Below are positions 6,584 through 26,069 of a DNA stretch of 64,000 bases, in pieces. The DNA lies in IMG/VR virus record IMGVR_UViG_3300035438_000341, positions 32,047 to 96,046 of that record; one strand, written 5' to 3'. Made by a program: the position numbers and the translations under genes. The notes beneath the pieces are model-generated. The model was not told the DNA's origin. It worked only from the letters and a program-made list of their open reading frames with translations, and did no database searches. The number at the start of each line of letters is the position of its first letter. Position 1 is the first letter of the stretch. The DNA comes from a virus.

Positions 6584-6596
6584 ACAAATATAAATC

Positions 6597-9500: not shown

Positions 9501-9944
9501 AATGCTGATCAAATGAACAAACAAAGTCTTGCATTAAGTAAAACAAAAGAGATAAATCAAAAAGCCATTGCTTCTATAGCTGATAAGTATTTGCAACATG
9601 ATGCTCGTGACTTAGAATATAAGGTTAAGAGTAATATGTTCCCTACATTTGCATATAATCAATCAGGTGGAATACGTACACAAGGTCCAGGATTTCAACC
9701 AAACATTCCACAAGTTTATGGAGGTAAATCAAACATAAAACAAGTTCCTGTATATGATACTGATGGTAAAACTATTCTAAGATATCAAATGCAAGAAGGA
9801 GATGGAACTAATATACCTTCTACTGCTACACCTCCTCTTGTTGCACTAACAAAAAATGGAGGATCTGTTGGTAAAAATAATAGATCATCAGTTGTTAAAA
9901 ATGCTAAGAACGGTTCTATAGTTAAACTACACAAAAATTTCTAA
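6597..9944 (+). CDS. Virion cargo/ejection protein (crAss cargo protein 1-like)
   Basis: Position between muzzle and vRNAP genes; GASHDNDGI..EAEG.E motif; Gly-rich hydrophobic segments; repeated xxxGG motifs. Confidence 0.65.
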   Translation: MKAQILKIAGVKSEKEFYKKYPSEEAFMKKHGKEFKKAQTGNNIATSNAGSFNMYNPYGDAFQSVDMEGMQSSFVKPIIEDTSDEEIAPVEVTPNFGKKQQKASDAYDTQELIGMTGDTSNPLGTDKLSSFAKGIDPMNAVMGAFTGIKGAFDAHKENKKLTKKMETWAKVSDVQKRAGISNAFAEKPKNQWFRPDDPRFIHSANELSNTQGRGTDVITQNGGVFQGGGEIQNTFAPGAIYDDLGYEPFDESNNDDAAYLENYQGGGKFGNFFNQLNTDLGGGQGFMGNLGKESPFNSMLAGNSTLANATGKLGSLFGPGVGLVTTMFGRMLDKEPGKQKHAQNTMNSNNAFLARLNTAGDITGGLQNMGVGQNGEALQPYEDGGWVSNDWTPQVIASFGGLDEQEVYDYAHEGMDTLRAGGHMRDYTPISNRGMETYAMGGQLKTHWGGEAEVISRNPYMPGSGEMVKLNGASHDNDGIGISYGGQQGGPQQTAKYGADTDASIEAEGRETIMEMQDGGEVDPQTGEAQTSAVVLGNIAPSADIVKATGDQVLIDLFNKNPKKTFKRIGEVIAKDENKAASYMEIASAKANNADDTQWGALENKTADIIKKAGDAKFKLAAQQRIKSANLQSAVNDTKKDISYMKGKNISAEDLGKGKISLDYDPITKDAELESPYAKHGAYLRKAQNSEVISPAEQKPSITEDQYNELVKLYEQGKKDKKSASIKEFQHKYHQLFPNEAITAIQKTTKERGVNAKGKKMGLTKEEILSGKNTGRILESNEDEYFGPRTEQYMAKISSEFNKKPAAATEELKLTPLGAKTTPTTDKKEIDVVPYKRNKFMDYANMLSQFLPSAKLPGIDPRQFAGEYMAMSQNQYEPVPSQHIRMQLDPMTRVSYQDIRNQSTADFRDALNQGAFNPAAAAGVFGKKALADQSSYAEEFRANQGLEQQIYGGNRAKVNQEMAANLQLNADQMNKQSLALSKTKEINQKAIASIADKYLQHDARDLEYKVKSNMFPTFAYNQSGGIRTQGPGFQPNIPQVYGGKSNIKQVPVYDTDGKTILRYQMQEGDGTNIPSTATPPLVALTKNGGSVGKNNRSSVVKNAKNGSIVKLHKNF

Positions 9945-9984
9945 CCAATTTAATTATAAAGAATTACCAGAATTGATTATTAGT

Positions 9985-10016
9985 TTTGGTAGTTATAATA
10001 ATTCATATTATATTTG
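9985..10016 (+). promoter_or_regulatory. Bacteroidota primary-sigma promoter (-33 TTTG / -7 TATATTTG)
   Basis: TTTG at 9985-9988, 20-nt spacer, TAnnTTTG at 10009-10016, ATG at 10024. Confidence 0.75.
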
Positions 10017-10023
10017 CTAAATT

Positions 10024-12639
10024 ATGGCTTCATACACAGACATCACCCCCACTTTCAATCCCTACGTTAAGCAATTGCCTGTTGAGGCAATGGCTGAAGT
10101 GGGTATGTACAAACAACAAAAGTATGATGAGGGTATACAGAAAATACAAACTAACATTGATAACATTGCTGGACTTGATGTTCTTAGAGATGTAGATAAA
10201 GCATATCTACAATCTAAACTCAATCAACTAGGTAATAACCTCAGTACAGTTGCAGCTGGAGATTTCTCTAATTTCCAATTGGTTAATTCTGTTAATGGAA
10301 TGACCAATCAAATATCCAAAGACCCTAATGTACTAAATGCAATAGCATCTTCTAAGACTTATAGAAAAGGATTAGAAGAGATGGCTGCTGCTAATAAAGA
10401 TGGTAAAGGATCTGCTTCTCACGATTGGTTATTCAAAACTGATGCTAACGATTGGTTAACTAGTGGAGATTTAAATAAATCATTTACTGGTGGGTATAAG
10501 CAATACAGTAATTATAAAAAGAATGGAATAGAAGTTATCAAAGCATTAGTTAAAAATGAAACTACTAAAGATGTAGCAATTGAGTATGACAAGAATGGTA
10601 ATGTGATTGTATTAGATGCAATGACACGTACAAAGATTGCAGGAATAACACCTGAAAGAATACAAGCAGCTTTGATGGTGGGTCTTAGTCCTAATGATTT
10701 TCAATCAATGCAAATTGATGGTAGATATAATTATTCAAATTCTACACCTGAACAATTTGTTTCTGATATCAATAAATCATATAAGACAGATTATGATAAG
10801 ATAAAGATGCAAAGAGACATGACAGTTAATGCCATGGATACAACTAGTTCAGCATCTACTAAAATGGAATTACAAAAACAAGTTGACTCATTTGACAAAA
10901 CATTAAAAAATTTATCAGATGAATATGGAAATGTTACTAAAACATTTGCTCAAGGTGATGTAGAATCCGCTAAGGCAAGACTTCACACTACTAAATGGAT
11001 TAGTAATTTTTCTAATACATTTGCTAGCCAAGATGTATCTCAAACATATGAGTCTAGTCCATTTCAACAAGTTAAGCAATATAAGGAAACTAAAGAAATT
11101 GAATATAGAAAATGGTTAGCTACATATAATCAAACACAACAGTTTCATCAGGATGATATTTATTTTAAAAAGAGAGATGATGCTAGAGCTGAACGTAAAG
11201 AAGTAAGAGAAGAAAAGTTAGCAGGTCTTCAAAGTGGATATGGAGGAGTTCCTTTCTCTGTTGATCAAAAAGAACTTCCTACGGTTACTCTTGATAAAAT
11301 TAATGATAAAATAAAAAATGATAATAAAGCTATAGCCAATAGTGAAAATGAAATAATGGAAGCCTTTGATAAAAAGGGAGATACATTATGGTTAGATCAA
11401 CAACGAGTGGCATGGCAAAGCGGTAAGTATGTAGATCCTTTATTGAGATCACATTTTAATACAACAGAACCTTTGAAAAGAGATGCATTTGCTAATATTG
11501 GAATGATTACAGATATAAATAATAAACTAGATAGTAAATTTGGAAAAATAGAAGATTATATCCCTGCTGGTTCTAAATCTGTTACAGTTAGTTTTCCTGG
11601 TGGAGCATACAAATATTCTCCTAAAGATTTTGTTGAATTTAATAATAAAGTGAACAACTATATAATAAGGGGTAGTGGTGATGGTAGATCTACAGGAGGT
11701 GGTGGTGCCCCTGGAACACAAAGTTCAGGAGCAATGTATGATAATGCAAGAGCTAAAAAAGAACTTTCTGATAAAGAATATTATTTATTTCTAGCAAAAA
11801 CTCAACCCTATTCAAATAATGCTGGATTTAAAACACTTAATCAATATTCAAATGAATATTTTAAAAATGTAAACTTTCCATATCAAAAAGTTTTAGTAGA
11901 AAGAAACAAAGAAACTGCTCAAATGGTTAAAGATAGAGTGGTAGCAATGCAGGGTAATGAGTATGGTATTCCTTTAGATAATGAAGCACAGAAAACTAGC
12001 TTTGGAAATGCTCTTATGAGTTTTGCTAATCTTGCTGATAAACAAGATGGAGGATTACCTAACTCTCCAGGTCTTGATACAAAAGCATTAAGAGCTATTG
12101 CAGGAGATCTTCAAAATGCAACAATACAAATTGTTGAAGGAACTGCATATGCTCCTGGAATGTATCAAGTTACAGCAGCAGGAAAAGATGGTACACCTCA
12201 AACATTTAGAGTTCCTACAGAAGCATACAGATCTGTATTTGGTAATAGATTTGAAGCTGATCCACAGATAGCAGCAATTAGACCTTTGCAATCACAACAA
12301 ATAAGAGCAGGTGGTGGTACAACAGCAATTGATGGTGGAAAAACAAATATAAGTAATTCTTATATGGGAAAAGCTACAGATTTTGTAAATGTAAGACATT
12401 ATGGAGTTTCAGGAAACTTAGTTACAAGTCAAGATGGTCTAAACTCAATTAGACTTAATATAACAGATCCTAAGACTAACAAAGTGTTAATTCAAGATCT
12501 TGCATATCCAGATTTTAATATACCAGCTAATCAAGTAAACAATGCAGTGCTAGGATTGACTGATGAAAGAATATTTGAGTTATTAAATAATAGAAAGCCT
12601 TCAGCTTCAGAATTAAAAACATTAAGACAAAAACCATAA
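10024..12639 (+). CDS. Virion cargo/ejection protein
   Basis: 871 aa, largely helical with coiled coils; FNPYVKQLP N-terminus; immediately upstream of the vRNAP polyprotein. Confidence 0.6.
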   Translation: MASYTDITPTFNPYVKQLPVEAMAEVGMYKQQKYDEGIQKIQTNIDNIAGLDVLRDVDKAYLQSKLNQLGNNLSTVAAGDFSNFQLVNSVNGMTNQISKDPNVLNAIASSKTYRKGLEEMAAANKDGKGSASHDWLFKTDANDWLTSGDLNKSFTGGYKQYSNYKKNGIEVIKALVKNETTKDVAIEYDKNGNVIVLDAMTRTKIAGITPERIQAALMVGLSPNDFQSMQIDGRYNYSNSTPEQFVSDINKSYKTDYDKIKMQRDMTVNAMDTTSSASTKMELQKQVDSFDKTLKNLSDEYGNVTKTFAQGDVESAKARLHTTKWISNFSNTFASQDVSQTYESSPFQQVKQYKETKEIEYRKWLATYNQTQQFHQDDIYFKKRDDARAERKEVREEKLAGLQSGYGGVPFSVDQKELPTVTLDKINDKIKNDNKAIANSENEIMEAFDKKGDTLWLDQQRVAWQSGKYVDPLLRSHFNTTEPLKRDAFANIGMITDINNKLDSKFGKIEDYIPAGSKSVTVSFPGGAYKYSPKDFVEFNNKVNNYIIRGSGDGRSTGGGGAPGTQSSGAMYDNARAKKELSDKEYYLFLAKTQPYSNNAGFKTLNQYSNEYFKNVNFPYQKVLVERNKETAQMVKDRVVAMQGNEYGIPLDNEAQKTSFGNALMSFANLADKQDGGLPNSPGLDTKALRAIAGDLQNATIQIVEGTAYAPGMYQVTAAGKDGTPQTFRVPTEAYRSVFGNRFEADPQIAAIRPLQSQQIRAGGGTTAIDGGKTNISNSYMGKATDFVNVRHYGVSGNLVTSQDGLNSIRLNITDPKTNKVLIQDLAYPDFNIPANQVNNAVLGLTDERIFELLNNRKPSASELKTLRQKP

Positions 12640-12641
12640 CA

Positions 12642-15600
12642 ATGGCAGAAAATAATCTAGAATCAATTGATAAAGCACAAAATGGTGCAGCAGCAGTAAA
12701 TCCTGTTCCTACACAATTAAATGTAGAAACACCAATGTTAGATAGACTTGATCTTGAAAATCAATTTGGTGGATATACAGCTCCTGGTATTCCAGAACCT
12801 TTGCCTACATATGCAAGTCCAGATAATGTTTATCCTGATGCAGTACCCTTAACAAGTAATCTTGGTGGAGGTGGTGATGATGGTTCTTTGGAATCACTTT
12901 ATTCTTCATTGCGTACACCTACTTCTACTAAACCAGGAGGAAGTATAATGAGAACTCTTTCTGAAGTGTCATCTAACAGATATGATAACTTTGTTCCTGG
13001 AGATTATAATAACGAAGATGCTTATGCTCAAAATCAATCTTGGACATCTAAAATGATCAATGGTGTAGGTAAAGGACTTTTACTTACAGGTACAACATTT
13101 CTACAAGGTACTGTAGGTATGGTTAATGGATTGGTTCAATGGGGAAAGGATGGGAGATTTGCTTCTTTTTATGATAATGATTTTAATAGAAACTTAGATG
13201 AAGTAATAAGAAAAGCTGAAGATGTTGCTCCTAATTTTTATACTGATGTAGAAAAAAATGCTAGTTGGTATTCTCCTGATTATTTTTTAACAGGAAACTT
13301 TTTATGGGATGGTGTTGTTAAGAACATGGGATTTGCTGCTGGAGCTTATTTAACTGGTGGAGTTTATTCTGCTGGATTAAAAGGACTCGCTGCACTTCCA
13401 GGTGCATCTAGACTATTATCTATGGGTAAAGTTGCTGAAGCAGTTGCTAAGTCAGAAGAGATGTTATTAAAACTTGATAAAGGAACAGAGGCTTATGGAA
13501 AAATAAAAGCATTGTCTGATTCCTATTTAAGAACATATAATATTTTAGATAAAGGACATAGAGCTGTTGTTGCAGGATTGTCTACTAGTGGGGAAGCTGG
13601 ATTTGAAGCATTTCAAAATCTTAATACTTTTAGAAATCAAAAAATACAAGAGTTTAAAGATAAAAATAATGGACTAGAACCAAAAGGTGCTGATCTTGAT
13701 AACATTAATAGATCTGCTGATAGTGTAGGTAATGCTTCTTTCTTAGGGAATGTTGCTTTACTTAGTGCTACTAACTATATTCAATTTCCTAAAATACTAG
13801 GAAGTTCTTATAAAGCAGAAAAGGGAATTATAAATAATGTTACTAGAGGGATTGGAGATATAACTACAGATGCTGCAGGTAAGTTTGTTGCAAAAACTCC
13901 TAAGAATAAAGTATTAAACACTATAAATAAAATAAGACCTTATACTTTTTCTGCCTCAGAAGGGTTTGAAGAAGGTGCTCAGTTTTCTATAGGTGTTGGT
14001 GTAAATGATTATTATAATAAAAAATATAATAATGAACCTACTAGTTGGTTAGATGCTTTATCAACAGGAATTACTGAAGGATTTTTATCAGATGAAGGAG
14101 CTAAAAATGTTTTAATAGGAGGATTGTCTGGTGCAATAATGATGGGAAAAAGTAAATTCCAAGAAGGAAGAGAAACATCAAAAAATACAGCAGAAGCAAT
14201 AACACAATTCAATAACTATCAATTATCTGATTTTACTAAAGAAACAAAAGACTCTGTAAATAGAGGAACTGTTCTTCAAGAAGAAAGAGAGCAGTTATTA
14301 AAAGAAGGAAACATAACAGAAAGTAAAGATAAAGAAACTGATTACATTATTAATTATCTCACTCCTAGAATTAAATTTGGAAGATTTGATTTAGTAAAAG
14401 CTGAGATAGATGATTACAGAACTCTTGCTAGTACTAATGATGGGTTTAATGAATTAGTAAAAGAAGAAAAAGCTCTTCCTACAGATACTAGAGAAGCATT
14501 CTTGGATAGACTTAATAAATTTGAACAGACAGCAAATAATGTAAAATCTTTATATCAAACTTTAAACTTACGTTATAGTGGCTTAGCAAATGCAGATGGA
14601 ACTCCTATGTACCCTACTTCTGTAATAGATAAAATGTTATATGCCACTACTAAAATTTCAGACTATGAACAAAGAATTCCAGAATTAACAAGTCAGTTAA
14701 TAGGAAGTGTAGATAATATAGATGAAATTTTACAAGATGTTTCTGAGGGTAAATTAGATACGTTTAATACAGCTGTTGCTAATCTTCAAGCAAGTAAACT
14801 TATTAATAAAGAAGAACTTATTGAAGCATTAGATGATGCTGCTTTTATGACTGCTAAAAGAGATGTATTATTAAAGCAATATGATGGTTTAAAAAATAAC
14901 CCAGAAAAGTATGTAGCAGTTGAACCAACTATAACTGATAGTGAAGGTAATGTATTAGATGAAAATGGAAACATTGTTCCTAAAGAAACTGTTATAGTTA
15001 AAGTTAAAGATGGTAAAACAGGACAAGTAGTAGATAAGAAAATTGAAATAGGTACTGAGTATGTACTTGGTAAAATAGTTAAATACGATAAAGATGGTAA
15101 TGAAGTTATTCAAGCTCCAACATTAAGTATATTAGCTGATAATGGTGATGGTACATTTAAAATTAAAGATAAGAATGGAATAAGAAATGTTTCTGCGGAA
15201 ACATTAGAAGGATATCAATTATCTAAACTTTCTGACATTACAAAAGATAAGAAGAAGAACTATGCATACATTAATAGAAATAACACTTTCTCAAATAAAT
15301 TAATAAAAGATGCTAATGGTAATCCTGTTATAGGAAGATTAGAATACTCTGCTAATAAAGACAGACTTACATTTGTATACAAGAATGAGAAAGGACAAGT
15401 TATAAGAAGTGAGGTTTGGAACAATATGTTCAAAGCTCAAGGTACATACAAAGAGGCTATTATTACACAAGTGGGAGAAGTGACTGCTGAAGCTGCACAA
15501 GCTACAGAGGAATTTGTAAATGCTGTAACCACTATATCACAAAAACTGCAAACACGTAACAATATTATACTAGACTTGTATGATAAAAGTGTTAAGCGTC

Positions 15601-18600
15601 TAGATGAGATAACTAAAAAATTAAACACTAGTAAAGAAAGAACAGCTAAAGCTCTTGAAGCATTAGAAGATCAACTTGCAAAAGAGAGCCTTACTAAGAA
15701 AGGAACTCCTAGAAAGAATCAAACTCCTGCAATGAAGAAGATAATCAATGAACTATCTTCTATACAAGCTACATTAAATAAAGAGAATGAACAACTATTA
15801 AGTGAGAAAGAAGAATTAGAATCTAACATACCTTTCTTTAAAGACTTCTTAGATAATCTTGAGTCTCTTCCTGAATCAGGTAGAGAGATGATTAAGTTAT
15901 TAAAAGATGATATTAACACTCTTGAGGACTTAATTGATATAACTAATCAAGCTATTAAAGATAATAGTAGTCTATTGAAACAAATAGAAGATGCATTTCT
16001 AAAAGCTGTTTCTATATTTAATGATTATATCAAAAGACTTCAACAAGAAAATCCAGGTGTACCATTATTTATAGATGACTTACAAGCTAATCTAGAAAGA
16101 GCATTAGGAGATGAAGGTGCACAATACTATATTAATAATAAACAGGGCATCACTACTCAAGTATTAGAACTAGAATCTGATATAAATGATTTCTCAGCTG
16201 AGTTAAAAATACCTGCATTAAATAAAAAAGCAGAAGAGCTCGTTAAAGATATAGCAGATTTAAAAGAAGGCTTAGATAAACTTATCAATGAACAAATTGC
16301 TAAGAGAGAAATATTAAATGCGTTTGAACAATTTGCAGAAGATGTAAAGAAACAAGAAGAAGAAGCTGCACAAATGCAACGTAATGTTACATTAGGACAA
16401 GAGCTTCTTGGTACATTAACAGGAAGTGTACAAAACTTCTTTGGTACAAAACCATATGAGCAAGAAGCTAAAAAAGATAAACTTACTGTTGTAGGAGCTA
16501 CTAAACCATTCACAGGAGATACTGTTGAAAGACCTCTTCCAGGATATGCTGCAAGAGTTAATCACTTTGGGACAAGAGTTTCTGATATGGATAATGTAGA
16601 TGATCTTAGAGGTGTTATTGTAACAGCTAATACAGAAGATCAAATACTTTCTGGATTAACAGAAGCGTTTCTTTCTGAAGATATAACAGATGCAAAAAGA
16701 AAAGAAGAAGTCAGAAAAGAAGTTATATTCTTAGTTGTAACAGAGAATGGACAACTTGTAGATAAGGATGGGAAACTTATTCCTGGAAAATCTGCAGATG
16801 AAACACAAGAAGCTTACAACAAAAGACTTTATGACAATGCTATATTCCAAGTGTTTCCTTCTGCTTCATTAGCTTATACAAAAGGAGATGTTGAAACAGG
16901 ATCAATGTTTAGAGACACTGTTCCTGAATATGAAAGAGAAAGTCTTAAAGAGCAATATAAAGCATGGAGAGATGGACAATTATCAAATACAACATTAGAT
17001 AAGAAAGGACAAAAGTTTAAAACATCTTTTGGTAATCTAGAGTTTGTTAAATATAAAAATGCAGATGGCACAACATCTGTAGATACTTCTGCAAGAACTT
17101 CTGCACAAGATGCTGGATTATTAGCTAAAGGTATACTTAATAGAGATGCTGTCATCACTGTTGCTACAACTAATGATGATAAGTCTGAAGGAAGTGTTTC
17201 TTTCAAGAGTCCTAAAGGTAGAGTGTTCTTACGTATACCAGGGCAAGGACTTGTTAGACTTTATAATAAAAAGTTTAATAAAACAGAATCAGAAACAATA
17301 TTTGATGCTATGTTAAACTTAGCTAAAAATGCTTCTGCGAATGGTTCATTATTCGGTAATGAAAAAGAAGAAGTTAATAAGAATATTTTAAACTGGTTAA
17401 AGAGCGTTGTATATTGGGGAATTGCAAAAGATAAAGAAGGAAACAGAAAACCTGCTGGATATAATAACATTTGGTTTGAAGATGTTATGGAAGATGGTAA
17501 ACAAGTTAAGAAGTTGTTTATGTCTGGTCTTCAAAAAGAATCTCAAAGATATTTTGACTTTACACCACAAGGACTTATAAATAGTAAACAAGATATTCTT
17601 GGATTGCTAGGACAAATGTATGCTAATACAGATGCTAAAAAAGTAAATATAGATACATACAATGCTCCCTACGATGAGATACTAAGTTTTGATAACCTAG
17701 GACTCCCTGTTACAAGAACATGGCCTAATTATCAAACATATTTATTGTCTGCAAACATTGTAGATAAAGATGGAAATGTTATAGGTAAAAGAACTGGAAA
17801 AGAAATTCCTCTTACAACACAAGTAAGACCTCTTACATCTGCAGAAGATACAAATAGAAAGGGTGTGTATTTCACATTGAATAGTTCAGTAGAATACACT
17901 GTACCTGCAGCTCCTATAGTTAAACCTGCAGTGGTGGTTACACCAGCACCAGTTGCTGCTACACCAACTGCTCAAGCTCCTGTAGCTCCCACAGCTTCAC
18001 CAGTAGTTCCACAACAACAACCTACACCTCCTGGACAATATAATTTAAATGGAGAAGCAGAAAATAGTAGAATGTTTGGTAATGGTGTAGGAGAAATAAG
18101 ATTTACATTCAATTCAGCAAAAGCAATTGAGTATATAAAATCTCTTTCTATAGATATATTTTCTATTCAAGGATTACTTCCTGCTGAAATATCTACAGCA
18201 TTTTTTAAGAATGACATCATGAATATAAATTCAGATGATGTAAAAATGAAAATTGGTCAGATAAAGGAAAACTTAAGAGATACTAACCCTGATGCAACTG
18301 ATGAAGAACTAACAGGTAAAGCTCTTAATATTGCTGTTAGTATGATATGGAAAGATGTTGCTCCACAAGTTGTAGGAGAAATGACTCCTGTTCAACCAGC
18401 AATAGCTGATGAAGCTCCAACATCTTTAGTAACAAGAATAAATGACACTATAACAAAAATATTTGAGTATGAATCATTATTTGATTTTAGTACAGATCAA
18501 CCAGGTAAAGTTGTTAAAGGAGAATTTATTCCTGATAATTTAGGATCTCAAATATTTGAAGCACTTAATAAATCCATTAAAGGAGAATTAGTAAAAACAG

Positions 18601-21600
18601 ACAAGGTAGAAGCACAAAAGTTATTTAAAGAATATGCTAAAGAAGTTCATCCAGATAAAAATACACAATCTAGTGAACGTCAAACTATAGCAGAAGCATT
18701 TTTTAAAGCAATGTCTGTTGCTAAAGAACAAGGTAGAGTAGATATATTAAATGAGTTAAAAGATAAATTTGATTTAGAAATAGCAGAAGTAACCACTGTA
18801 GTAAAAACTCCAATAGAAGAAGAAGAAGTAGTTACTCCTGAAAAAGTAGTTCCTGCAACTACACTTCCTGAAGGATTTATCAATCTAGATGATATAGAAG
18901 ATGTAGATGTTGATAGAAGTGAAATGAGAGTTGCACAAGCTATTGACAAACTAGATCAATTTAAAGCAGAGAACTGGAAGAAATTAGAAGAAGATTACAA
19001 TAAAATGCTTCCTAATGTTCCTTTATATAGAGTGAAGAACCTGATCAAAGGTACTAATGGTAGACAGCTTTGGGGTATGTTCCATGATGCTGCTGTATAT
19101 GTATATGAGAACGCAGAAGAGGGAACAGCTTACCATGAGGTGTTTGAAGCTGTATGGAAAATGTTTGCTGGACCAGCTCAGAAACAAGCTATTATTAATG
19201 AGTTCAAATCAAGAACAGGATCTTTTACTGATAGAGAAACTAGAAAGTCTGTAGAATATAAAAACGCCACTGCTTATCAAATCAAAGAACAATTAGCTGA
19301 AGAGTTTAGAGAAGCAGTTCTTTTTGATAAGTTAGGTAAACCATTAGAATCAAAAAGTTTAATAAGCAGATTGTTCTCTCAATTGATTGACGCTATTAAA
19401 GCTTTCTTTGTAGGACCTAGAGCTCAAATTAATACAAGAGAATTATTCAATAGAATTGGTAATGGATACTATGCTCAATTCAATCCATATGAAACACAAC
19501 TATCATATGCTAAGAAGGGTGTGATAGATATTGAAAATGCTCAAGCTAATCAAACTTCAGAAGGAAGATCAACAACAATCCCTGAGATTGAAATGCATGA
19601 CATTATTCAGCATATGACATTCTTGACATTGACTAAACTTTCATTAAACAATGAGAGTGTATTTACTGTTAATGATCAAAAAGAATCAGAATTATACCCA
19701 GCTCTTAAACTTGGTATATTAAAACTTCTTGCAGGACAAAAGAAATTAAATGATATATTAGTTACTGAAGGTAAGTCAACTTTAGAGAAAGTGACTAGAA
19801 TGAATAACAATCTTGATACACTATCATATAACATTCAAATGGAATGGGCTGAAATTACTGCCAATCATAAAGCACATTTGAAAACGTTTGATGTTCAGTT
19901 TGATGAGAATGATGAAGGTATATTAAACAGTGAAGAAAATACTGGTAGAGGAGAATTAGAAGCATCTAATAAAATTGATTCATATAGAAAAGCTAATGCT
20001 GCTTTGAAACTTGTATTGAGCACTATTCCTGTTACAGAAATGACAGGTGGTAAAATAGATTGGCTTCCTTCTTCTATAGGAGGAGTTACACTTATTCCTG
20101 CAGATCAGATACACATTGATTTAAAAAGTAAGTTACATAGTTCTATGGATATAGAAGATATGTTACTAGGTCTTAAAACAATGGCAGAGAATAATCCTAA
20201 TTACAATGCTTTATTTAGACGCTTAACTGGTAACTCTGCTAATCAAGGATTAGATATAACTACTATTCAAGAACATGACTTCCAATTAGCAGCAGCATTA
20301 TGGAAATCTATCAGTATGCAAAATCCTGATGTTATCACTGTGTTCCTTCAAGAAGATGGTGATGTAGTTGTAAGTAACTCTACACTTAGTAGTGCAGCTA
20401 AGCAAGCTAAAAAAGGGATGATTAATGATATAATATCTACATTAAAAGCAGATCAATCTAAGTATTTTAGATATGTACCAGCTACAGGTAGATACTATGC
20501 TAAAGATAATTTGAAAGCTTTAGAATTTGATGGTAGCGGTCTAAAGCAATATGTTGATTTTCTTAATTCAATTGGAATAGAATTTAATGAAAGAGACCTA
20601 GTAGATTTAAAAGCAGATCAACTTTCTGTATTTAAAAAATCAGTTGGATATATTAGAGAAGAACTTGCTAAGGTGGGAGATACAAAAATAGTAAAAGATG
20701 CAAATAATAATGATGTAGAAGAAGATGGTGGTATACGAAGTATCAGTACTAAAACATTAAATATTGATGGTAACTTATTTGAGTTAGCTATTGTAAAAGC
20801 TGTTATTGAAAATACAGAGTTTCAGTCTACATATTTTAACATTAATGGAGAGCGTACACAATCATTCATTGGTACCAATCTTATTAGTGCTTTACACAAC
20901 ACACTATCTAAACTAAAAAATATAGAGGATCTACAAAACGATCCTAGACATAAAAGATTTGCTTACTTAGCAGCAGGCAATGATGTATTTGTACAAGGAA
21001 GTCAAATGTTGAAAAAGATGTTTGATATAGTTGGAACAGATAGTACAGGAAAACGTAGAGCTGGTACAGAAGATATTGGAAAACCTGTTATTGTAGATGG
21101 TATAGTAGATGAAGAAACTGGTAAGAAAAAAGAAGCTTCTAAAGTTTCATACAGACAAAGACTTATACAGGAGTTAAATCTTAACCTATCTGGTATATTC
21201 ATGAACCTTGTTCCTGGAGATGCTTCATTGGAACATGCTATTAGAATGTACAATGCAAAAGATCCGTTTGTTTCAGAAGATCAATTACTCAACAAAGGCT
21301 ACTTAGATATATTCAAAGACTATTTCATGTCTGAAGTGGAACTAGTTAAAGAAAATAGAAATACAGCAAAAGATAATGGAAAAGATCTTCGTTTCTTTAA
21401 AGCTATTCTAGGAGATGAGGCACATAAAAAAATTGCTTCTAGAATTAAAAAAGACACTGATGCTGAACAATTATATCAAGATAATAAAGAAGCTATAAAT
21501 TCTGCAGTGGAGGCATTCATTAAACAAGAAACAGAAGATACAGAAGACTTATTAAGATCATATGATATTGTAACAACAGAAGATGGACAAGTTAGTGTAG

Positions 21601-24600
21601 ATAAGGTGAGCTTATTTAAAAAAGGAGAAGCAGTTACACAAGCTGGTTTAAATACAAAATTAAAAGCATTAAGTATTAACTACATGATAGCTAATATTGA
21701 AATGCACAAAATTTTGTATTCAGATCCTTACCAATATAATGATGAGCTTAAACGTATCAAAAACTTTACATCTCCTGGACAACCATTAGTTCCTAGTTCT
21801 CAAAAGATAGATGCTAGACTTAATGAAATTTATAACAAAGGATTTGAACCTGATGATATTGGTTATATAGATATGACTCAAGATCATTTTAAATCTGTAA
21901 CACTTGCGGATGTATTAAGTACTAATAAGAATTTAGGATATGATGTTCCTTATGAGGAAACAGATGGTGGAGGATTAATTACACTTAAAGCAACTAAAGT
22001 ATTTAAACTTAGAGCTGGTACATGGACTTCTAATAATGAAAAACAATATAGATTTGATATAGCGTTTGAAGAATTATTTAAATCAGGTGCTAGTGAAGAA
22101 ACACTTAAGAAATTCTTAAAAGGTAATCCAGGTATTAAAGATACATACACACCTGTTAAACCTATTGTTAGAGGTAATAAAGACAATGGTAGAACTTATA
22201 ATGATATTGTTCTTCACAAATTTGCACTTGCTCCTATATCATTTAGAATTCTTTATGAAATGAATCCTGATTCTAATGCAATCAAATTGTATAACAAGAT
22301 GCAAGCAGAGAATATAGATTATGCTGTGTTTGCTTCTGGTAGTAAAGTGGGAACAGAAAAGATATCTCCTTTATATAATGCAAAAGGTGAGTTTGACAAT
22401 ACACCATTTCAAGATGCCAAAGAGAAAAAAGGTAATTTAGCTGACAATGTTAAGAGAGCAGTAACTAATATACCATTCACTATTGTAGCTGTACAATCAG
22501 AAGTTCCTTCTAAAGATGTTCCATCTGTTACACAGGGATCTCAGATTACTAAACTTGCTACAATGGATTATTTAGAATCTGGTGTACCTGTAGATTTTAT
22601 GGCTGGTAAAGAATTTGAAGATAGATTTCTTGCATGGTTAGATCTTGATGATAAATCAAGTTATAACAATGGTACAAACATCTATAATGAAATTGTAAAC
22701 AATCAAAAACTTTTAGAAGCTAGAATCGAAGATGCTGTAGAGTCTTTATACAAAAAACTTGGTATCAAAGAAACTGTAAATGAAGAAGGAAATAGAGAGT
22801 GGAGAATAGAAGACAGAGATAAATTAGTTAAAACTCTAACTGAAGAGATTGGTAAAAGAGAAATCAATTACAACATTACAGATGCATTTGAAGGATTTGT
22901 CAAAGGAGATGTTATATTAGAAGCTACTCCTATATACCAACAAGTTAGAAACATTCTTTATTCTATAGCTGATAAAACTATTGTACGTCCTAAAATATCA
23001 GGAGGTATGAAGGTGCAAGTTTCTTCTGCATTATTAGAATCTGTAAGAGCAGAAGGAAAACCTGTATTAGATGATAAAGGTAAGCCAACATTTAATAAAG
23101 ATGGTAGCCCTAAACTTTCATATGAATCTACTGAGTTAGAGTTCTATAAGAATGAAGATGGTAAGAGAGTGTGTGAGATAATGATTGGTAGATGGTTTAA
23201 ATCTAATAAATCAGATGCTGACCTAATGAATTACTTCAATAACACAGATGAAGGTAAGAAAGAACTTGCAGCTATTACAGGTGTAGCATTTCGTATTCCT
23301 ACACAGAAACAAAACTCTATTGATGTATTCAAGATAAAACAATTTCTTCCTAAAGACTTTGGTGATTCAGTGATTATTCCTTCAGCTCTTGTTAAGAAAG
23401 CAGGATCGGATTTTGATATTGATAAATTGTCAATCTATCTAAAAAACTTATTTACAGAAAATTCTGGAAAACTAAAAAGAATTCCTTTTTATGGCACAGG
23501 AGAAAATGCTAAAAAAGAATTTGGAAAATTGTATGATGTTGGATACTTTGATAACTACATCTCACAGATGAAAGATTCACTATCTTTAGAAAGTGCTGAA
23601 GATAGATTAATGGAAAGTATGTTCCCTGAAGAATATTCTTTACAAAGAGAAAATGTTATAGATACTTTATATAAAAAATCTTTAGAGAATGCATATATAC
23701 AATCTTTAGAAAACCTTATATCTCATCCATTAAACTATGACAACTTAGTTAAACCTAATGACGCTAAACCCTTAAGTGATCTATCAGACGCTATTCAAAA
23801 AGAAATGGGTTATGGTAAAGCAGATTTTGGTAATGTAGGTAATATGTTGAGTAGAAGATTTATGTCTAATCTAAGACAATCTTTTGTTGGTGGTAAACAA
23901 GCATTAGGTATTGCTGCTCAAGGACAAGTAGGACATGCTCAAAGACAACGTAGTGTTACATATATAGATGTAGATAGACTAGAAGGAGATTTGGTTGATG
24001 AACAAGATAAAATTATTCTTGGAACTAAATCAGATTCTACTATATTTGCTACAGATACAAACATTAACTTTCAAGAGTACAACTCTGCAGTGATTAATGG
24101 TGTAAAAAGACCAATGCTTTCATGGATTAAAAATAAAGCAGGAGAATACATTTCAGATATTAATGGGATGTTTATTGATGGATATGTGGATATCTCTAAA
24201 GGTGACTGGATTATAAAACTTGGAGCAACTACTAATACAGCTTCTACATGGTTGTTTTTAATTGATCTTGGTGTGCCTATTGACACTGTAGGATATTTCA
24301 TGAATCAACCTATCATTAGAGATTATTTACGTTCTATTGAGAACAAAGGATATTCTTGGTTATACATAGAGGATATGATAGAAGATAAACTTGCAGAATA
24401 TAGTCCTAGTAAAGAGTTTATTAAATCAGGAACATCTGTAAAAGGAATTCCTGCAGAAGCAGATTTATTTAAAATGCTTAAATATAATAATGCAGCTCCT
24501 AAATCAGACATGACAGATATTCAAAAACTTCAACAACAATATATGTTGAAAGAGTTCTTGAAATATGCTAAGATGGCTTCACATATGTTTAATGTATCAC

Positions 24601-26069
24601 AAGCTTCAAACTATGATACAGCTAACATCAATGATCCATATTTAGTATTTAAGAAAATGATTCAATTAGATAAAGCTAAAAAAACTATCATCTCTTCTGT
24701 AGATGATATTATTTCAGGATCATTCATAAAAGAATTAAAAAATAAAATATTTGACTATAGAGATGCATTCTCTGAAATATTAATGTCAGATAAAGGAAAC
24801 GTTAGACAAGTGCTACAAAATGTTTTAGAACCTTATACAGATATGTCTGATAGAGATTTTGTTAAGCTTTCACAAAAAGCTGTAAATGATCTATTTGATT
24901 GGGCTGTACAAACTACATTCAAAGAGGGTGTACCTGTAAACACAAAGGTGGCTAGAATATTATTAGGAACAGAGACAGAAAAATCTGCAGCTGAACAAAT
25001 TATTGATTATAGAGATTCAATATTAGGTAATCCTGTAAAAGGAATAGCTCCTAAGCCAGATCATAAGTTATTCAATAACATCATTCTTAATTCACTATCT
25101 ATAGATCAAAACGATAAAAATGGTGGTAGAAAAGGTGCTCCTATCAATCTTATATTAGATAACAGAGAAAACAAAGTGTCTGATCAAAACTTAACTATAT
25201 ATGGATTCAATGAGTTAAGAGAAACACTGAAAGAAGAAAACAATTTGAAACTATATGGTAAGTTAACAAGACTTGCTTTATTACAATCAGGGTTAACTAA
25301 TTCTCCTATATCATTCACTAACCTTCTTCCTTATAATGATTTCAAAGGATTGTACAATGAAACCTTGTCTATATTAGAAAAACTTCCTAACTTAGCACAG
25401 TTTCAAGAATTAAATATTTTTGAAAGAAACAATTGGAACAATAGTGATGTAGTTACATACAAAAGAGCTACATTATATTTTGGAGAAGATAAAGATGGTA
25501 CTAAGTATGTATCTAATCTAGATAGAGATACATTAGTTAAACCATTGAAAAAAGCAACAAACAATGGTATTATTCCTAAGTTAGTTGGGATTAGTCCTAT
25601 GTCAGAAGCTGGTAGATCAGATTTCATTGTTTATTCTTACGAGGATGTTATTTCTTCAGAACAAAGAATTCTTAGAAGAAAAACTGGTAACACACAACAT
25701 CAACATAAAATGTTAATGCAGAAGGTGTACACAACAGATGCTAATAACAAAAGAGTTCCTCTTCTTCACATTACGGAAAAGAATGGAAAGGTTTACACTA
25801 AGTATGTATACAAAGCAATCAATGCTTGGGGAGATTCATTCAGAGCACAAGAGTTCTACACAACAAATCAACAATCAGTTCTTGATAATGGATTTGATAA
25901 AGTGAACGAAGTGAAAGATGATGTCATTGTAGATATATATAAAGGTGGTGCTACTACTACTGCTGTAGAAACTGTAAGTGAAAAACCTGAAAGTGTTACA
26001 CAAGAAGAATGGGATGCTTCAACTCCTAAAGAAAAGGCAGAAATAATAAGACAACAAAAAGAATGTTAA
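12642..26069 (+). CDS. Giant virion polyprotein containing the crAss-type virion RNA polymerase, a J-domain and a degenerate zincin motif
   Basis: GSDFDIDKL catalytic motif (DFDID at 23409-23423) preceded by RIPTQ, as in phi14:2 gp66; HPDKN from 18648; HEVFE from 19134; 4475 aa. Confidence 0.9.
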   Translation: MAENNLESIDKAQNGAAAVNPVPTQLNVETPMLDRLDLENQFGGYTAPGIPEPLPTYASPDNVYPDAVPLTSNLGGGGDDGSLESLYSSLRTPTSTKPGGSIMRTLSEVSSNRYDNFVPGDYNNEDAYAQNQSWTSKMINGVGKGLLLTGTTFLQGTVGMVNGLVQWGKDGRFASFYDNDFNRNLDEVIRKAEDVAPNFYTDVEKNASWYSPDYFLTGNFLWDGVVKNMGFAAGAYLTGGVYSAGLKGLAALPGASRLLSMGKVAEAVAKSEEMLLKLDKGTEAYGKIKALSDSYLRTYNILDKGHRAVVAGLSTSGEAGFEAFQNLNTFRNQKIQEFKDKNNGLEPKGADLDNINRSADSVGNASFLGNVALLSATNYIQFPKILGSSYKAEKGIINNVTRGIGDITTDAAGKFVAKTPKNKVLNTINKIRPYTFSASEGFEEGAQFSIGVGVNDYYNKKYNNEPTSWLDALSTGITEGFLSDEGAKNVLIGGLSGAIMMGKSKFQEGRETSKNTAEAITQFNNYQLSDFTKETKDSVNRGTVLQEEREQLLKEGNITESKDKETDYIINYLTPRIKFGRFDLVKAEIDDYRTLASTNDGFNELVKEEKALPTDTREAFLDRLNKFEQTANNVKSLYQTLNLRYSGLANADGTPMYPTSVIDKMLYATTKISDYEQRIPELTSQLIGSVDNIDEILQDVSEGKLDTFNTAVANLQASKLINKEELIEALDDAAFMTAKRDVLLKQYDGLKNNPEKYVAVEPTITDSEGNVLDENGNIVPKETVIVKVKDGKTGQVVDKKIEIGTEYVLGKIVKYDKDGNEVIQAPTLSILADNGDGTFKIKDKNGIRNVSAETLEGYQLSKLSDITKDKKKNYAYINRNNTFSNKLIKDANGNPVIGRLEYSANKDRLTFVYKNEKGQVIRSEVWNNMFKAQGTYKEAIITQVGEVTAEAAQATEEFVNAVTTISQKLQTRNNIILDLYDKSVKRLDEITKKLNTSKERTAKALEALEDQLAKESLTKKGTPRKNQTPAMKKIINELSSIQATLNKENEQLLSEKEELESNIPFFKDFLDNLESLPESGREMIKLLKDDINTLEDLIDITNQAIKDNSSLLKQIEDAFLKAVSIFNDYIKRLQQENPGVPLFIDDLQANLERALGDEGAQYYINNKQGITTQVLELESDINDFSAELKIPALNKKAEELVKDIADLKEGLDKLINEQIAKREILNAFEQFAEDVKKQEEEAAQMQRNVTLGQELLGTLTGSVQNFFGTKPYEQEAKKDKLTVVGATKPFTGDTVERPLPGYAARVNHFGTRVSDMDNVDDLRGVIVTANTEDQILSGLTEAFLSEDITDAKRKEEVRKEVIFLVVTENGQLVDKDGKLIPGKSADETQEAYNKRLYDNAIFQVFPSASLAYTKGDVETGSMFRDTVPEYERESLKEQYKAWRDGQLSNTTLDKKGQKFKTSFGNLEFVKYKNADGTTSVDTSARTSAQDAGLLAKGILNRDAVITVATTNDDKSEGSVSFKSPKGRVFLRIPGQGLVRLYNKKFNKTESETIFDAMLNLAKNASANGSLFGNEKEEVNKNILNWLKSVVYWGIAKDKEGNRKPAGYNNIWFEDVMEDGKQVKKLFMSGLQKESQRYFDFTPQGLINSKQDILGLLGQMYANTDAKKVNIDTYNAPYDEILSFDNLGLPVTRTWPNYQTYLLSANIVDKDGNVIGKRTGKEIPLTTQVRPLTSAEDTNRKGVYFTLNSSVEYTVPAAPIVKPAVVVTPAPVAATPTAQAPVAPTASPVVPQQQPTPPGQYNLNGEAENSRMFGNGVGEIRFTFNSAKAIEYIKSLSIDIFSIQGLLPAEISTAFFKNDIMNINSDDVKMKIGQIKENLRDTNPDATDEELTGKALNIAVSMIWKDVAPQVVGEMTPVQPAIADEAPTSLVTRINDTITKIFEYESLFDFSTDQPGKVVKGEFIPDNLGSQIFEALNKSIKGELVKTDKVEAQKLFKEYAKEVHPDKNTQSSERQTIAEAFFKAMSVAKEQGRVDILNELKDKFDLEIAEVTTVVKTPIEEEEVVTPEKVVPATTLPEGFINLDDIEDVDVDRSEMRVAQAIDKLDQFKAENWKKLEEDYNKMLPNVPLYRVKNLIKGTNGRQLWGMFHDAAVYVYENAEEGTAYHEVFEAVWKMFAGPAQKQAIINEFKSRTGSFTDRETRKSVEYKNATAYQIKEQLAEEFREAVLFDKLGKPLESKSLISRLFSQLIDAIKAFFVGPRAQINTRELFNRIGNGYYAQFNPYETQLSYAKKGVIDIENAQANQTSEGRSTTIPEIEMHDIIQHMTFLTLTKLSLNNESVFTVNDQKESELYPALKLGILKLLAGQKKLNDILVTEGKSTLEKVTRMNNNLDTLSYNIQMEWAEITANHKAHLKTFDVQFDENDEGILNSEENTGRGELEASNKIDSYRKANAALKLVLSTIPVTEMTGGKIDWLPSSIGGVTLIPADQIHIDLKSKLHSSMDIEDMLLGLKTMAENNPNYNALFRRLTGNSANQGLDITTIQEHDFQLAAALWKSISMQNPDVITVFLQEDGDVVVSNSTLSSAAKQAKKGMINDIISTLKADQSKYFRYVPATGRYYAKDNLKALEFDGSGLKQYVDFLNSIGIEFNERDLVDLKADQLSVFKKSVGYIREELAKVGDTKIVKDANNNDVEEDGGIRSISTKTLNIDGNLFELAIVKAVIENTEFQSTYFNINGERTQSFIGTNLISALHNTLSKLKNIEDLQNDPRHKRFAYLAAGNDVFVQGSQMLKKMFDIVGTDSTGKRRAGTEDIGKPVIVDGIVDEETGKKKEASKVSYRQRLIQELNLNLSGIFMNLVPGDASLEHAIRMYNAKDPFVSEDQLLNKGYLDIFKDYFMSEVELVKENRNTAKDNGKDLRFFKAILGDEAHKKIASRIKKDTDAEQLYQDNKEAINSAVEAFIKQETEDTEDLLRSYDIVTTEDGQVSVDKVSLFKKGEAVTQAGLNTKLKALSINYMIANIEMHKILYSDPYQYNDELKRIKNFTSPGQPLVPSSQKIDARLNEIYNKGFEPDDIGYIDMTQDHFKSVTLADVLSTNKNLGYDVPYEETDGGGLITLKATKVFKLRAGTWTSNNEKQYRFDIAFEELFKSGASEETLKKFLKGNPGIKDTYTPVKPIVRGNKDNGRTYNDIVLHKFALAPISFRILYEMNPDSNAIKLYNKMQAENIDYAVFASGSKVGTEKISPLYNAKGEFDNTPFQDAKEKKGNLADNVKRAVTNIPFTIVAVQSEVPSKDVPSVTQGSQITKLATMDYLESGVPVDFMAGKEFEDRFLAWLDLDDKSSYNNGTNIYNEIVNNQKLLEARIEDAVESLYKKLGIKETVNEEGNREWRIEDRDKLVKTLTEEIGKREINYNITDAFEGFVKGDVILEATPIYQQVRNILYSIADKTIVRPKISGGMKVQVSSALLESVRAEGKPVLDDKGKPTFNKDGSPKLSYESTELEFYKNEDGKRVCEIMIGRWFKSNKSDADLMNYFNNTDEGKKELAAITGVAFRIPTQKQNSIDVFKIKQFLPKDFGDSVIIPSALVKKAGSDFDIDKLSIYLKNLFTENSGKLKRIPFYGTGENAKKEFGKLYDVGYFDNYISQMKDSLSLESAEDRLMESMFPEEYSLQRENVIDTLYKKSLENAYIQSLENLISHPLNYDNLVKPNDAKPLSDLSDAIQKEMGYGKADFGNVGNMLSRRFMSNLRQSFVGGKQALGIAAQGQVGHAQRQRSVTYIDVDRLEGDLVDEQDKIILGTKSDSTIFATDTNINFQEYNSAVINGVKRPMLSWIKNKAGEYISDINGMFIDGYVDISKGDWIIKLGATTNTASTWLFLIDLGVPIDTVGYFMNQPIIRDYLRSIENKGYSWLYIEDMIEDKLAEYSPSKEFIKSGTSVKGIPAEADLFKMLKYNNAAPKSDMTDIQKLQQQYMLKEFLKYAKMASHMFNVSQASNYDTANINDPYLVFKKMIQLDKAKKTIISSVDDIISGSFIKELKNKIFDYRDAFSEILMSDKGNVRQVLQNVLEPYTDMSDRDFVKLSQKAVNDLFDWAVQTTFKEGVPVNTKVARILLGTETEKSAAEQIIDYRDSILGNPVKGIAPKPDHKLFNNIILNSLSIDQNDKNGGRKGAPINLILDNRENKVSDQNLTIYGFNELRETLKEENNLKLYGKLTRLALLQSGLTNSPISFTNLLPYNDFKGLYNETLSILEKLPNLAQFQELNIFERNNWNNSDVVTYKRATLYFGEDKDGTKYVSNLDRDTLVKPLKKATNNGIIPKLVGISPMSEAGRSDFIVYSYEDVISSEQRILRRKTGNTQHQHKMLMQKVYTTDANNKRVPLLHITEKNGKVYTKYVYKAINAWGDSFRAQEFYTTNQQSVLDNGFDKVNEVKDDVIVDIYKGGATTTAVETVSEKPESVTQEEWDASTPKEKAEIIRQQKEC

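Follow-up and report, generated by a model that had tools for sequence, protein, structure and literature searches.

The DNA between positions 18531 and 18791 of the window (the whole 64,000 nucleotide stretch analyzed here, positions 32,047 to 96,046 of IMG/VR virus record IMGVR_UViG_3300035438_000341) encodes a small helical module, very likely a divergent version of the J-domain, the switch by which the host chaperone DnaK is activated. It has an invariant HPD tripeptide, aligns with DnaJ in the expected register, is modeled as a helical hairpin, and is predicted to dock on DnaK. The module forms a cassette that is optional and can be swapped within a giant phage protein, a point that was missed in the first-pass annotation. 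We tentatively favor the reading that this segment is a divergent class C J-domain cassette, which may load host DnaK onto its carrier protein after ejection and so aid refolding. J-domains are defined as helical hairpins of 60–70 residues with HPD in the apical loop, and they dock at the NBD/SBD-beta interface and the linker (PMC13254874).

The carrier is P0001, a crAss-type cargo or virion RNA polymerase protein of 4,475 aa, encoded by a giant open reading frame (12642–26069, on the + strand, as are all features described below) read from the orf list and its translation. The whole protein has no match among PHROG, NCBIfam, or PDB sequences, and a Pfam scan of it returned no significant effector domain. 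Using tblastn, its C-terminal part (about aa 2848–3902; 21183–24347) is homologous to phi14:2 gp66, the product of g066 (‘Catalytic RNA polymerase subunit’; E 3e-20, 22% identity over ~1,055 aa), and additional matches are to crAss-like genes annotated as ‘putative RNA polymerase’. The translation also contains a DFDID (DxDxD) motif at aa 3590–3594 (23409–23423), which we take to be the candidate catalytic metal-binding loop by its likeness to gp66-type polymerases. The gp66 match and this motif uphold the earlier assignment of the carrier as a crAss-type virion RNA polymerase protein. The gene is located in a cargo/ejection gene block directly upstream of the tail fibre genes, the same block that includes gp66 of Cellulophaga phage phi14:2 and gp47, gp49, and gp50 of crAss001 (PMC10172136). 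Homologs and gene position together indicate that the protein is probably packaged in the capsid and injected with the DNA of a crAss-like phage. Unlike the polymerase region, the module has no relative in the phi14:2 record (tblastn).

The first-pass annotation described a J-domain-pattern peptide with an HPD motif, lying in a low-complexity region with a Pro/Ala linker upstream and a zincin part downstream. The peptide is present in the translation of the orf, and both neighbors were found: a Pro/Ala/Val-rich linker at aa 1754–1798 (17901–18035) and a zincin-like motif, HEVFE, at aa 2165–2169 (19134–19148). This motif is degenerate in the window protein, and is HEIGH, HEAFH, or HESFH in relatives. 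The stretch itself is not of low complexity, however, but is a well-conserved helical module situated between two linkers, the second being an acidic Pro/Glu/Val-rich segment at aa 2051–2100 (18792–18941) that connects it to the zincin-like region. The HPD tripeptide (aa 2003–2005; 18648–18656), which is evident in the translation, invariant among relatives, and a predicted DnaK contact, is placed in the loop that links helix II to helix III; it occurs once in the 4,475 residues, compared with 0.06 occurrences expected from composition. Helix II corresponds to aa 1988–2002 (18603–18647) and helix III to aa 2011–2030 (18672–18731), both placed by the hhalign register, the AF2 model, and predicted DnaK contacts. 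A predicted helix I (aa 1967–1981; 18540–18584) is of low confidence, with a pLDDT of about 58 over model residues 1–20, and a long helix IV (aa 2033–2049; 18738–18788) is packed on the hairpin in the model.

Comparison of aa 1850–2130 with module-less homologs using BLASTP defines an insertion cassette of ~118 residues (aa 1927–2044; 18420–18773). In close relatives lacking the module, the left flank is 82–90% identical up to aa 1925–1931 and the right flank resumes at aa 2040–2093; the intervening site holds five residues in P0008 and other inserts in P0010, P0013, P0014, and P0015. Alignments show that the cassette begins with an N-terminal extension, TSLVT...FIPDN (aa 1927–1963; 18420–18530), which is kept in the closest subfamily only and is absent from relatives L006 and L105–L107. 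At the other end, the second half of helix IV is a junction peptide, KFDLEIAEV (18765–18791), and a regex survey shows that its pattern, K[YF][DN]xE[LI]xxL, also terminates unrelated cassettes of homologs. Of the homologous giant proteins found, about a quarter have the cassette and about three quarters lack it, including some whose flanks are about 87% identical. The module is known from metagenomic contigs only, and a tblastn search of 50,697 deposited phage genomes, including the phi14:2 record, identified no relative. Close relatives with left flanks 86–90% identical lack the cassette, which therefore cannot be needed in general for ejection or refolding of the polymerase; refolding after ejection is clearly independent of it, given that homologs without it exist. 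The cassette, being optional, is thus an accessory rather than a core part of ejection.

An optional module whose position varies among the giant proteins from aa 690 to about 2250 could also act in trans, as one more exchangeable effector carried by an injected polyvalent protein, capturing or redirecting host DnaK after entry instead of folding its own carrier; the result would be an altered host stress response, or DnaK lent to another phage process. A survey of homologous giant proteins identified effector Pfam domains of the polyvalent type (PF18760, PF13532, and PF08719) together with helicase domains, and about half of the carriers have the module 120–180 aa upstream of a zincin-like motif, which could release modules. 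There is also a precedent: Rki (ORF 057w) of the T4-like phage RB43, the first phage J-domain protein known to function, acts on host DnaK (PMC3486835). The module resembles Rki as a phage-encoded J-domain partnering host DnaK, in our case by prediction only; Rki is, however, a small stand-alone protein acting in trans on sigma-32, whereas the module sits as a cassette within a very large polymerase protein that is probably injected by its Bacteroidota-type phage. The window protein may also resemble the polyvalent proteins (Iyer et al. 2017, PMC5512222), giant mosaics delivered with the DNA that have a zincin-like peptidase motif and exchange modules among relatives: modules are swapped at its cassette site, and homologs of the window protein bear ART-PolyVal, 2OG-Fe(II) oxygenase, and NADAR-type domains; the window protein differs in that it also contains a virion RNA polymerase and its own zincin motif is degenerate. 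Neither DnaJ, the J domain, nor Hsp70 is mentioned by Iyer et al. 2017 (PMC5512222). We consider action in trans to be unlikely, since no separate client-binding domain accompanies the module, the zincin motif of the window protein is the degenerate HEVFE, and the few copies delivered per virion would presumably confront an abundant chaperone.

The first-pass annotation proposed a search with Pfam PF00226. DnaJ is the best family, but all scores (14.1–20.8 bits) are below the gathering cut-off of 27.8 bits. The whole protein scores 14.1 bits and an 87-aa piece 20.8 bits (E 4e-4), with the match spanning profile positions 13–51 of 63. All 11 of the members scanned match DnaJ in one register, and DnaJ is the best Pfam family for nine of them; every score is sub-threshold, within the same range. 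Evidence from single sequences is thus weak, and J-domain membership rests on profile-profile and motif evidence, which shows a match beyond chance. The HPD motif, whose lack of conservation in homologous inserts had been named as a refutation, is invariant in all 23 related modules, at identities down to about 35%, and over 16 diverse modules the only invariant columns are HPD and one lysine of helix II. When the 23-sequence module profile was aligned with 85 true J-domains using hhalign, the two matched over 40 columns in the helix II–HPD–helix III register (Prob 95.5, P 1.6e-8); the reversed control gave P 0.007 and eight column shuffles gave P 0.04–0.9. Masking of HPD left the register unchanged, with P 0.0015.

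Within this alignment, helix II residues K1993, F1995, K1996, and A1999 correspond to DnaJ K23, Y25, K26, and A29, and helix III residues F2020/F2021 and A2027 correspond to DnaJ F47 and A53. Y25, K26, and F47 are conserved functional residues of J-domain helices II and III; the columns matching them are conserved in 11–13 of 15 diverse members, and the A53 equivalent is conserved too. Helices I and IV did not align with DnaJ. An HMM built from the 85 J-domain sequences and run unfiltered against 70 giant proteins found its best match at the module in every module-bearing protein, with scores from single digits to about 22 bits (E up to 0.17), compared with no more than 2.6 bits in module-less homologs. 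A search of 1.84 billion representatives with the module profile recovered no canonical DnaJ protein at E ≤1e-3. The three named clusters closest to the module in the ESM Atlas consist of small viral proteins, with PF00226 in 20–37% of members; with scores of 0.86–0.87, this is a lead only.

An AF2 model of the module (16 sequences, model ma786b0894a97) has a pLDDT of 81.8 overall and 84–92 over residues 21–87, with four helices, in the order expected of a J-domain, at residues 4–18, 25–39, 48–67, and 70–86. HPD (residues 40–42) is modeled in the loop that connects two long helices running antiparallel. The first two structures ranked by Foldseek are the J-domains of DnaJ (5NRO; E 1.3, 49 columns at 3.5 Å) and Ydj1 (E 1.4), neither of which is significant with E above 1. 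With VIA-align, the auxilin and PFA0660w J-domains have Z values of 4.2–4.4, compared with about 7 for generic three-helix bundles, and the overall fold match of the model to solved J-domains is not significant. The module is similar to the E. coli DnaJ J-domain seen with DnaK (PDB 5NRO, PF00226) in its HPD loop between antiparallel helices, its helix II and III residues in register, and its Foldseek rank. It differs in its sub-threshold Pfam score (20.8 against 27.8 bits), in a helix I that is poorly predicted and unalignable, and in a long helix IV that runs into the junction peptide. It also lies at about residue 2000 of a 4,475-aa virion protein, whereas that of DnaJ is N-terminal in a co-chaperone of roughly 380 aa, and it is without the G/F region, zinc finger, and client-binding domain.

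The predicted complex of the module with Bacteroides DnaK (DNAK_BACTN 1–610) and ATP scored 0.80, compared with 0.02 for the best of three controls. The mark used for such scores is attained by 58 of 80 solved complexes and two of 110 mismatched pairs, figures that hold only roughly here because a custom alignment was used and ATP was included. Contact agreement between runs was at least 95%, and the pLDDT of the partner was at least 82. The predicted interface joins module residues 33–37, 40–43, and 55–63 with DnaK residues 164–165, 208–211, 372–386, 411–416, and 473–474, so that HPD and helices II and III are predicted to sit at the NBD/linker-region/SBD-beta site of ATP-bound DnaK, as in 5NRO. 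Because a similar complex has already been solved (5NRO), which the predictor may simply reproduce, this result shows likeness rather than binding. The phage record contains no Hsp70 gene of its own, and any partner must therefore be a host Hsp70.

The same data can be read as a J-like helical spacer without DnaK activity—a three-helix bundle retaining an HPD turn by chance and acting between the linkers in a structural or interaction role. The sub-threshold Pfam scores of every member are compatible with this, as are the top structural neighbors, which are generic and designed three-helix bundles (Z about 7), the sequences of helices I and IV, which are not J-like, and the possible contribution of 5NRO to the complex score. 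We regard a spacer as rather improbable, since HPD never varies even though identity in the surrounding helices falls to about 35%, the hhalign match (P 1.6e-8) keeps its register when HPD is masked, and the equivalents of DnaJ Y25, K26, F47, and A53 are conserved. Moreover, pseudo-J-domains have typically lost the HPD motif (PMC13254874).

The first-pass annotation proposed that a cis-acting J-domain recruits host DnaK to refold the polymerase or ratchet it into the cytoplasm, an interpretation that the present results support in part. Recruitment of DnaK by the ejected protein, the reading that we favor, would proceed in four steps. The giant protein would be packaged in the capsid, as its homologs suggest, and would then pass through the tail in a partly unfolded form, as the first-pass annotation assumed and as the crAss001 structure paper states: cargo proteins must partly unfold for tail passage and then refold (PMC10172136). 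In the cytoplasm the small module may refold alone, dock on ATP-bound host DnaK in the predicted manner, and trigger ATP hydrolysis. DnaK would then be clamped on neighboring unfolded segments of the same polypeptide, preventing aggregation and speeding refolding of the polymerase. The proposed class C J-domain would combine the helix II–HPD–helix III hairpin with a long helix IV and a helix I that is weak, and would occupy the linker that separates the N-terminal part of the cargo protein from its zincin-like and RNA polymerase part. Such a cassette would improve DnaK-assisted refolding as an accessory and would not be required for it, as close relatives without it suggest.

DnaK could alternatively be recruited in the producer cell, during late synthesis, keeping the 4,475-aa protein soluble or loosely folded for packaging, with no role after ejection. 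The J-domain evidence is identical for this reading and for DnaK recruitment after ejection, and sequence does not separate the two; a protein this large is a plausible DnaK client at synthesis, and the N4 virion polymerase is thought to be unfolded or loosely folded in the capsid (PMC13434306). We nevertheless find it distinctly improbable, as equally large homologs that lack the cassette are evidently synthesized and packaged. Highly improbable is a self-carried import motor, in which the J-domain on leaving the ejection channel would fire host DnaK onto the following unfolded segments, ratcheting the polymerase and the leading genome end into the cytoplasm; if true, phages would have their own version of the Hsp70 import motors of mitochondria and the ER, but one whose J-domain is carried by the substrate and not by the channel. 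Sec63 with BiP is a J-protein at a protein-translocation channel. Pam18 with mitochondrial Hsp70 is another (PMC13254874). The likeness to these is one of function only, in that a J-domain stands at the exit of an unfolded chain for an Hsp70 to grip, and homology is claimed for the J-domain only; theirs belongs to the channel, whereas the phage module would travel on the translocated protein.

DnaJ-domain co-chaperones of jumbo phages are already known (PMC7824862), as are giant class C J-proteins from sequence databases (PMC13254874), and with Rki also described, the novelty lies in the context and not in the domain. The finding bears on the means by which proteins thousands of residues long withstand passage through a tail of 3–5 nm and regain activity, a question common to crassviruses and N4-like phages; the structure papers on crAss001 and N4 (PMC10172136, PMC13434306) discuss unfolding and refolding but never mention a chaperone. 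A J-domain in an ejected polymerase would, if true, connect ejection to the host Hsp70 system in concrete molecular terms for the first time, and the module provides a testable idea for the refolding of giant injected proteins, with natural pairs of phages with and without it available for comparison. As a mobile and optional cassette, it would be a chaperone-recruiting module that giant phage proteins exchange just as they do enzymatic effector modules.

Large open reading frames (orfs) lie in series on the same strand within the window, and one of them (12642-26069, plus strand) encodes a giant protein of 4,475 residues, the carrier of the J-like module. The whole carrier protein has no matches in PHROGs, NCBIfam or the PDB sequences. 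With tblastn, residues 2101-4475 match phi14:2 g066 ('Catalytic RNA polymerase subunit'; E-value 3e-20, 22% identity over ~1,055 aa) as well as genes annotated 'putative RNA polymerase' in numerous crAss-like phages of Bacteroides and Flavobacterium, and a DFDID motif is present at residues 3590-3594. The carrier gene sits among large virion genes, with a collagen-like tail fibre gene downstream (30948-32816, plus strand; several tail-fibre PHROGs, E-values down to 6.5e-15), shortly beyond a 1,596-aa orf that is itself next after the giant orf. The first-pass identification of the carrier as a crAss-like virion RNA polymerase protein thus holds by homology, through the g066 match and the gene position, and we infer that the carrier is packaged in the virion. 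The IMG/VR record containing the window is 96 kb long. Between large genes of the cargo locus is a 207-aa orf (5960-6583, plus strand) matching homing endonuclease families of the GIY-YIG type (phrog_314, E-value 1e-30).

Translation places the peptide that had drawn attention to a J-domain within the carrier, its HPD tripeptide being residues 2003-2005 (nt 18648-18656) of a J-like module spanning nt 18531-18791 (aa 1964-2050). The flanking elements are also where they had been reported: a Pro/Ala linker at nt 17901-18035 and a zincin-like HEVFE at nt 19134-19148 (aa 2165-2169). The latter motif is HEVFE in the carrier and its closest relatives and HEIGH, HEAFH or HESFH in distant ones; because the second zinc-binding histidine is lost in HEVFE, the peptidase of the carrier may be inactive.

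HPD occurs once in the 4,475 residues, with 0.06 occurrences expected from composition. Pfam DnaJ (PF00226) is the top-scoring family for the whole carrier (14.1 bits), and the 87-aa piece alone scores 20.8 bits (E-value 4e-4, profile positions 13-51 of 63); both values are below the cut-off of 27.8 bits. A phmmer search of the PDB returned mostly J-domains (Ydj1, DNAJA1, DNAJA2, dnj-12 and dnj-2) with E-values of 0.02-0.8, and single sequences thus give weak evidence of a J-domain. In the A2 profile search of PDB sequences J-domains reached E-values of 0.2-0.9 only, and the top matches, designed armadillo-repeat proteins, were rejected because they matched the GRVDILNELK-like part spuriously, in multiple stretches.

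A region-restricted search identified 39 homologous giant proteins, ten of which carry the module, all with HPD unchanged. Once 1.84 billion representatives had been searched with the profile and contigs from IMG/VR and JGI scanned, the family stood at 23 different modules belonging to three or more subfamilies. HPD is invariant in 23 of 23, so that the conservation in homologous inserts on which the original proposal depended is borne out. Across a diverse 16-row alignment no column is fully conserved apart from HPD and a single lysine of helix II, and every module scanned matches Pfam DnaJ in the identical register, always below threshold. The module profile did not reach canonical DnaJ among the 1.84 billion representatives, where only the module's own family was real; repeat proteins with 3-14 weak stretches were judged spurious. 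A degenerate DNA pattern for the subgroup of homologs P0054 and P0060 gave no matches in IMG/VR, and P0054, which aligned wrongly in an initial mixed alignment, is left out of the alignment used for folding. A second subfamily, found on contig L105, has the core motif KKIHPDK[FY]QD. P0058, a small stand-alone metagenomic protein (181 aa, on a 1.6 kb contig), carries the module N-terminally (with HHPD), ahead of a coiled-coil-like tail, and the module therefore occurs outside giant proteins too.

The 23-sequence module alignment was compared using hhalign with a reference set of 85 J-domains, consisting of DnaJ from 80 species and other J-proteins of five genomes (CbpA-, DjlA- and HscB-like proteins included). 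The two align across 40 columns, in the register helix II-HPD-helix III, with a probability of 95.5% and a P-value of 1.6e-8; a reversed J-domain alignment gave P = 0.007, and eight column shuffles 0.04-0.9. Masking HPD still recovers this register (P = 0.0015). DnaJ equivalents kept in the module in this register are K23, Y25 (as F), K26, A29, R36 (as K), N37, F47 and A53. When an HMM of the 85 J-domains was run unfiltered against 70 proteins, its best match coincided with the module in all proteins that carry one, with low scores (single digits to ~22 bits, E-values up to 0.17); module-less homologs scored at most 2.6 bits. Chance occurrence of HPD was rejected, given the invariance of the motif together with the alignment controls.

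An AlphaFold2 model from six close sequences was of too low quality to be used (pLDDT 61, J-domains missing from the leading Foldseek matches); the 16 diverse rows gave 81.8 (84-92 over residues 21-87), with helices at 4-18, 25-39, 48-67 and 70-86 and HPD in the loop at 40-42. Foldseek ranked the J-domain of DnaJ in 5NRO, the solved E. coli DnaJ–DnaK complex, first for this model (E-value 1.3, 49 columns at 3.5 Å) and that of Ydj1 second, with several more J-domains following, none of them significant. With VIA-align two J-domains had Z scores of 4.2-4.4, and generic or designed three-helix bundles scored ~7, an effect of the packing of the long helix IV against the hairpin; among 48,161 chains, the best 50 were all generic or designed helical bundles, and no J-domain was among them. 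The predicted structure thus has the helical hairpin with an apical HPD that the first-pass annotation had anticipated, but shows no significant match to the full J fold. The three nearest named clusters in the ESM Atlas are small viral proteins with PF00226 in 20-37% of members, and at scores of 0.86-0.87 they are a lead only.

Complex prediction was performed with the module (alignment A4), residues 1-610 of Bacteroides thetaiotaomicron DnaK, and ATP. The score was 0.80, as against 0.02 for the best of three controls, with contact agreement between runs of at least 95% and a partner pLDDT of at least 82. In a benchmark 58 of 80 solved complexes and two of 110 mismatched pairs reach the score mark, counts that are only a rough guide here because a custom alignment was supplied and ATP was included. 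The predicted interface involves helix II residues 33-37, HPDK (40-43) and helix III residues 55-63 of the module, and DnaK residues 164-165, 208-211, 372-386, 411-416 and 473-474. The site so formed draws residues from the nucleotide-binding domain, the linker region and SBD-beta, as is described for 5NRO (PMC13254874), a likeness of site type rather than residue by residue. Because a complex of this type is already solved, the high score may stem from the predictor having learned that structure, and it indicates likeness, not binding.

Phage J-proteins on record include Rki (PMC3486835) and, from jumbo phages, co-chaperones with a DNAJ domain (PMC7824862), and databases contain class C J-proteins that exceed 12,000 residues (PMC13254874). 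Our literature search found no paper joining a J-domain to crAss-like phages or polyvalent proteins, and the polyvalent-protein paper (PMC5512222) mentions none of DnaJ, J domain or Hsp70. Searched with tblastn, the deposited phage genomes gave no real match, and judged by sequence the module appears to lack a counterpart in any of them.

No Hsp70 gene was found in the phage record, and any partner would therefore be host DnaK. The cargo proteins of crAss001 must partly unfold for passage through the tail and then refold (PMC10172136), in agreement with what had been assumed for crAss cargo proteins, and the same is stated for the N4 polymerase in a 2026 paper (PMC13434306); neither paper mentions a chaperone. 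Our favored reading, held tentatively, is that the module acts in cis after ejection: this small part would refold ahead of the rest of the carrier and then fire host DnaK, which would be loaded onto adjacent unfolded segments of the same carrier. A takeover role in trans, by analogy with Rki, has that protein as its precedent and seems unlikely. Only slightly further down in our estimate is a J-like spacer without activity, and we think least of chaperoning confined to the producer cell.

The cis-acting reading does not extend to an essential role in ejection, against which the optional nature of the larger insertion, or cassette (nt 18420-18773, aa 1927-2044), argues. In close homologs the sequence is 82-90% identical as far as aa 1925-1931, and identity resumes from aa 2040-2093; between these flanks P0008 has five residues, P0010 a Pro/Glu/Val linker, and others unrelated inserts. 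An extension of ~37 aa that reads TSLVT... and contains an SLFDF motif (nt 18420-18530, aa 1927-1963) is conserved alongside the J-like core, but solely in the closest subfamily. The cassette is closed by KFDLEIAEV (nt 18765-18791, aa 2042-2050), and the same pattern, K[YF][DN]xE[LI]xxL, also closes unrelated cassettes in homologous giant proteins, some without a J module (homologs listed: P0005, P0014, P0015, P0024, P0038 and P0060). It looks like a shared junction where modules are swapped; it also forms part of helix IV, and may be the reason for that helix's un-J-like length.

In other carriers the module lies at aa 690, 746, 942, 1333, 1345, 1587 or about 2250, often, not always, with a zincin-like HExxH 120-180 aa downstream. 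Contig L105 has a split version of the architecture, the module being in a separate orf (13148-14644, minus strand) directly upstream of a 3,044-aa orf (4014-13148, minus strand); proteins of this type hardly align with the carrier beyond the module itself and a weak similarity in the zincin region. Homologs also carry ART-PolyVal, 2OG-Fe(II) oxygenase, NADAR and helicase domains. The carrier family is one of polyvalent-type mosaic proteins, whose mobile parts include the J-like module.
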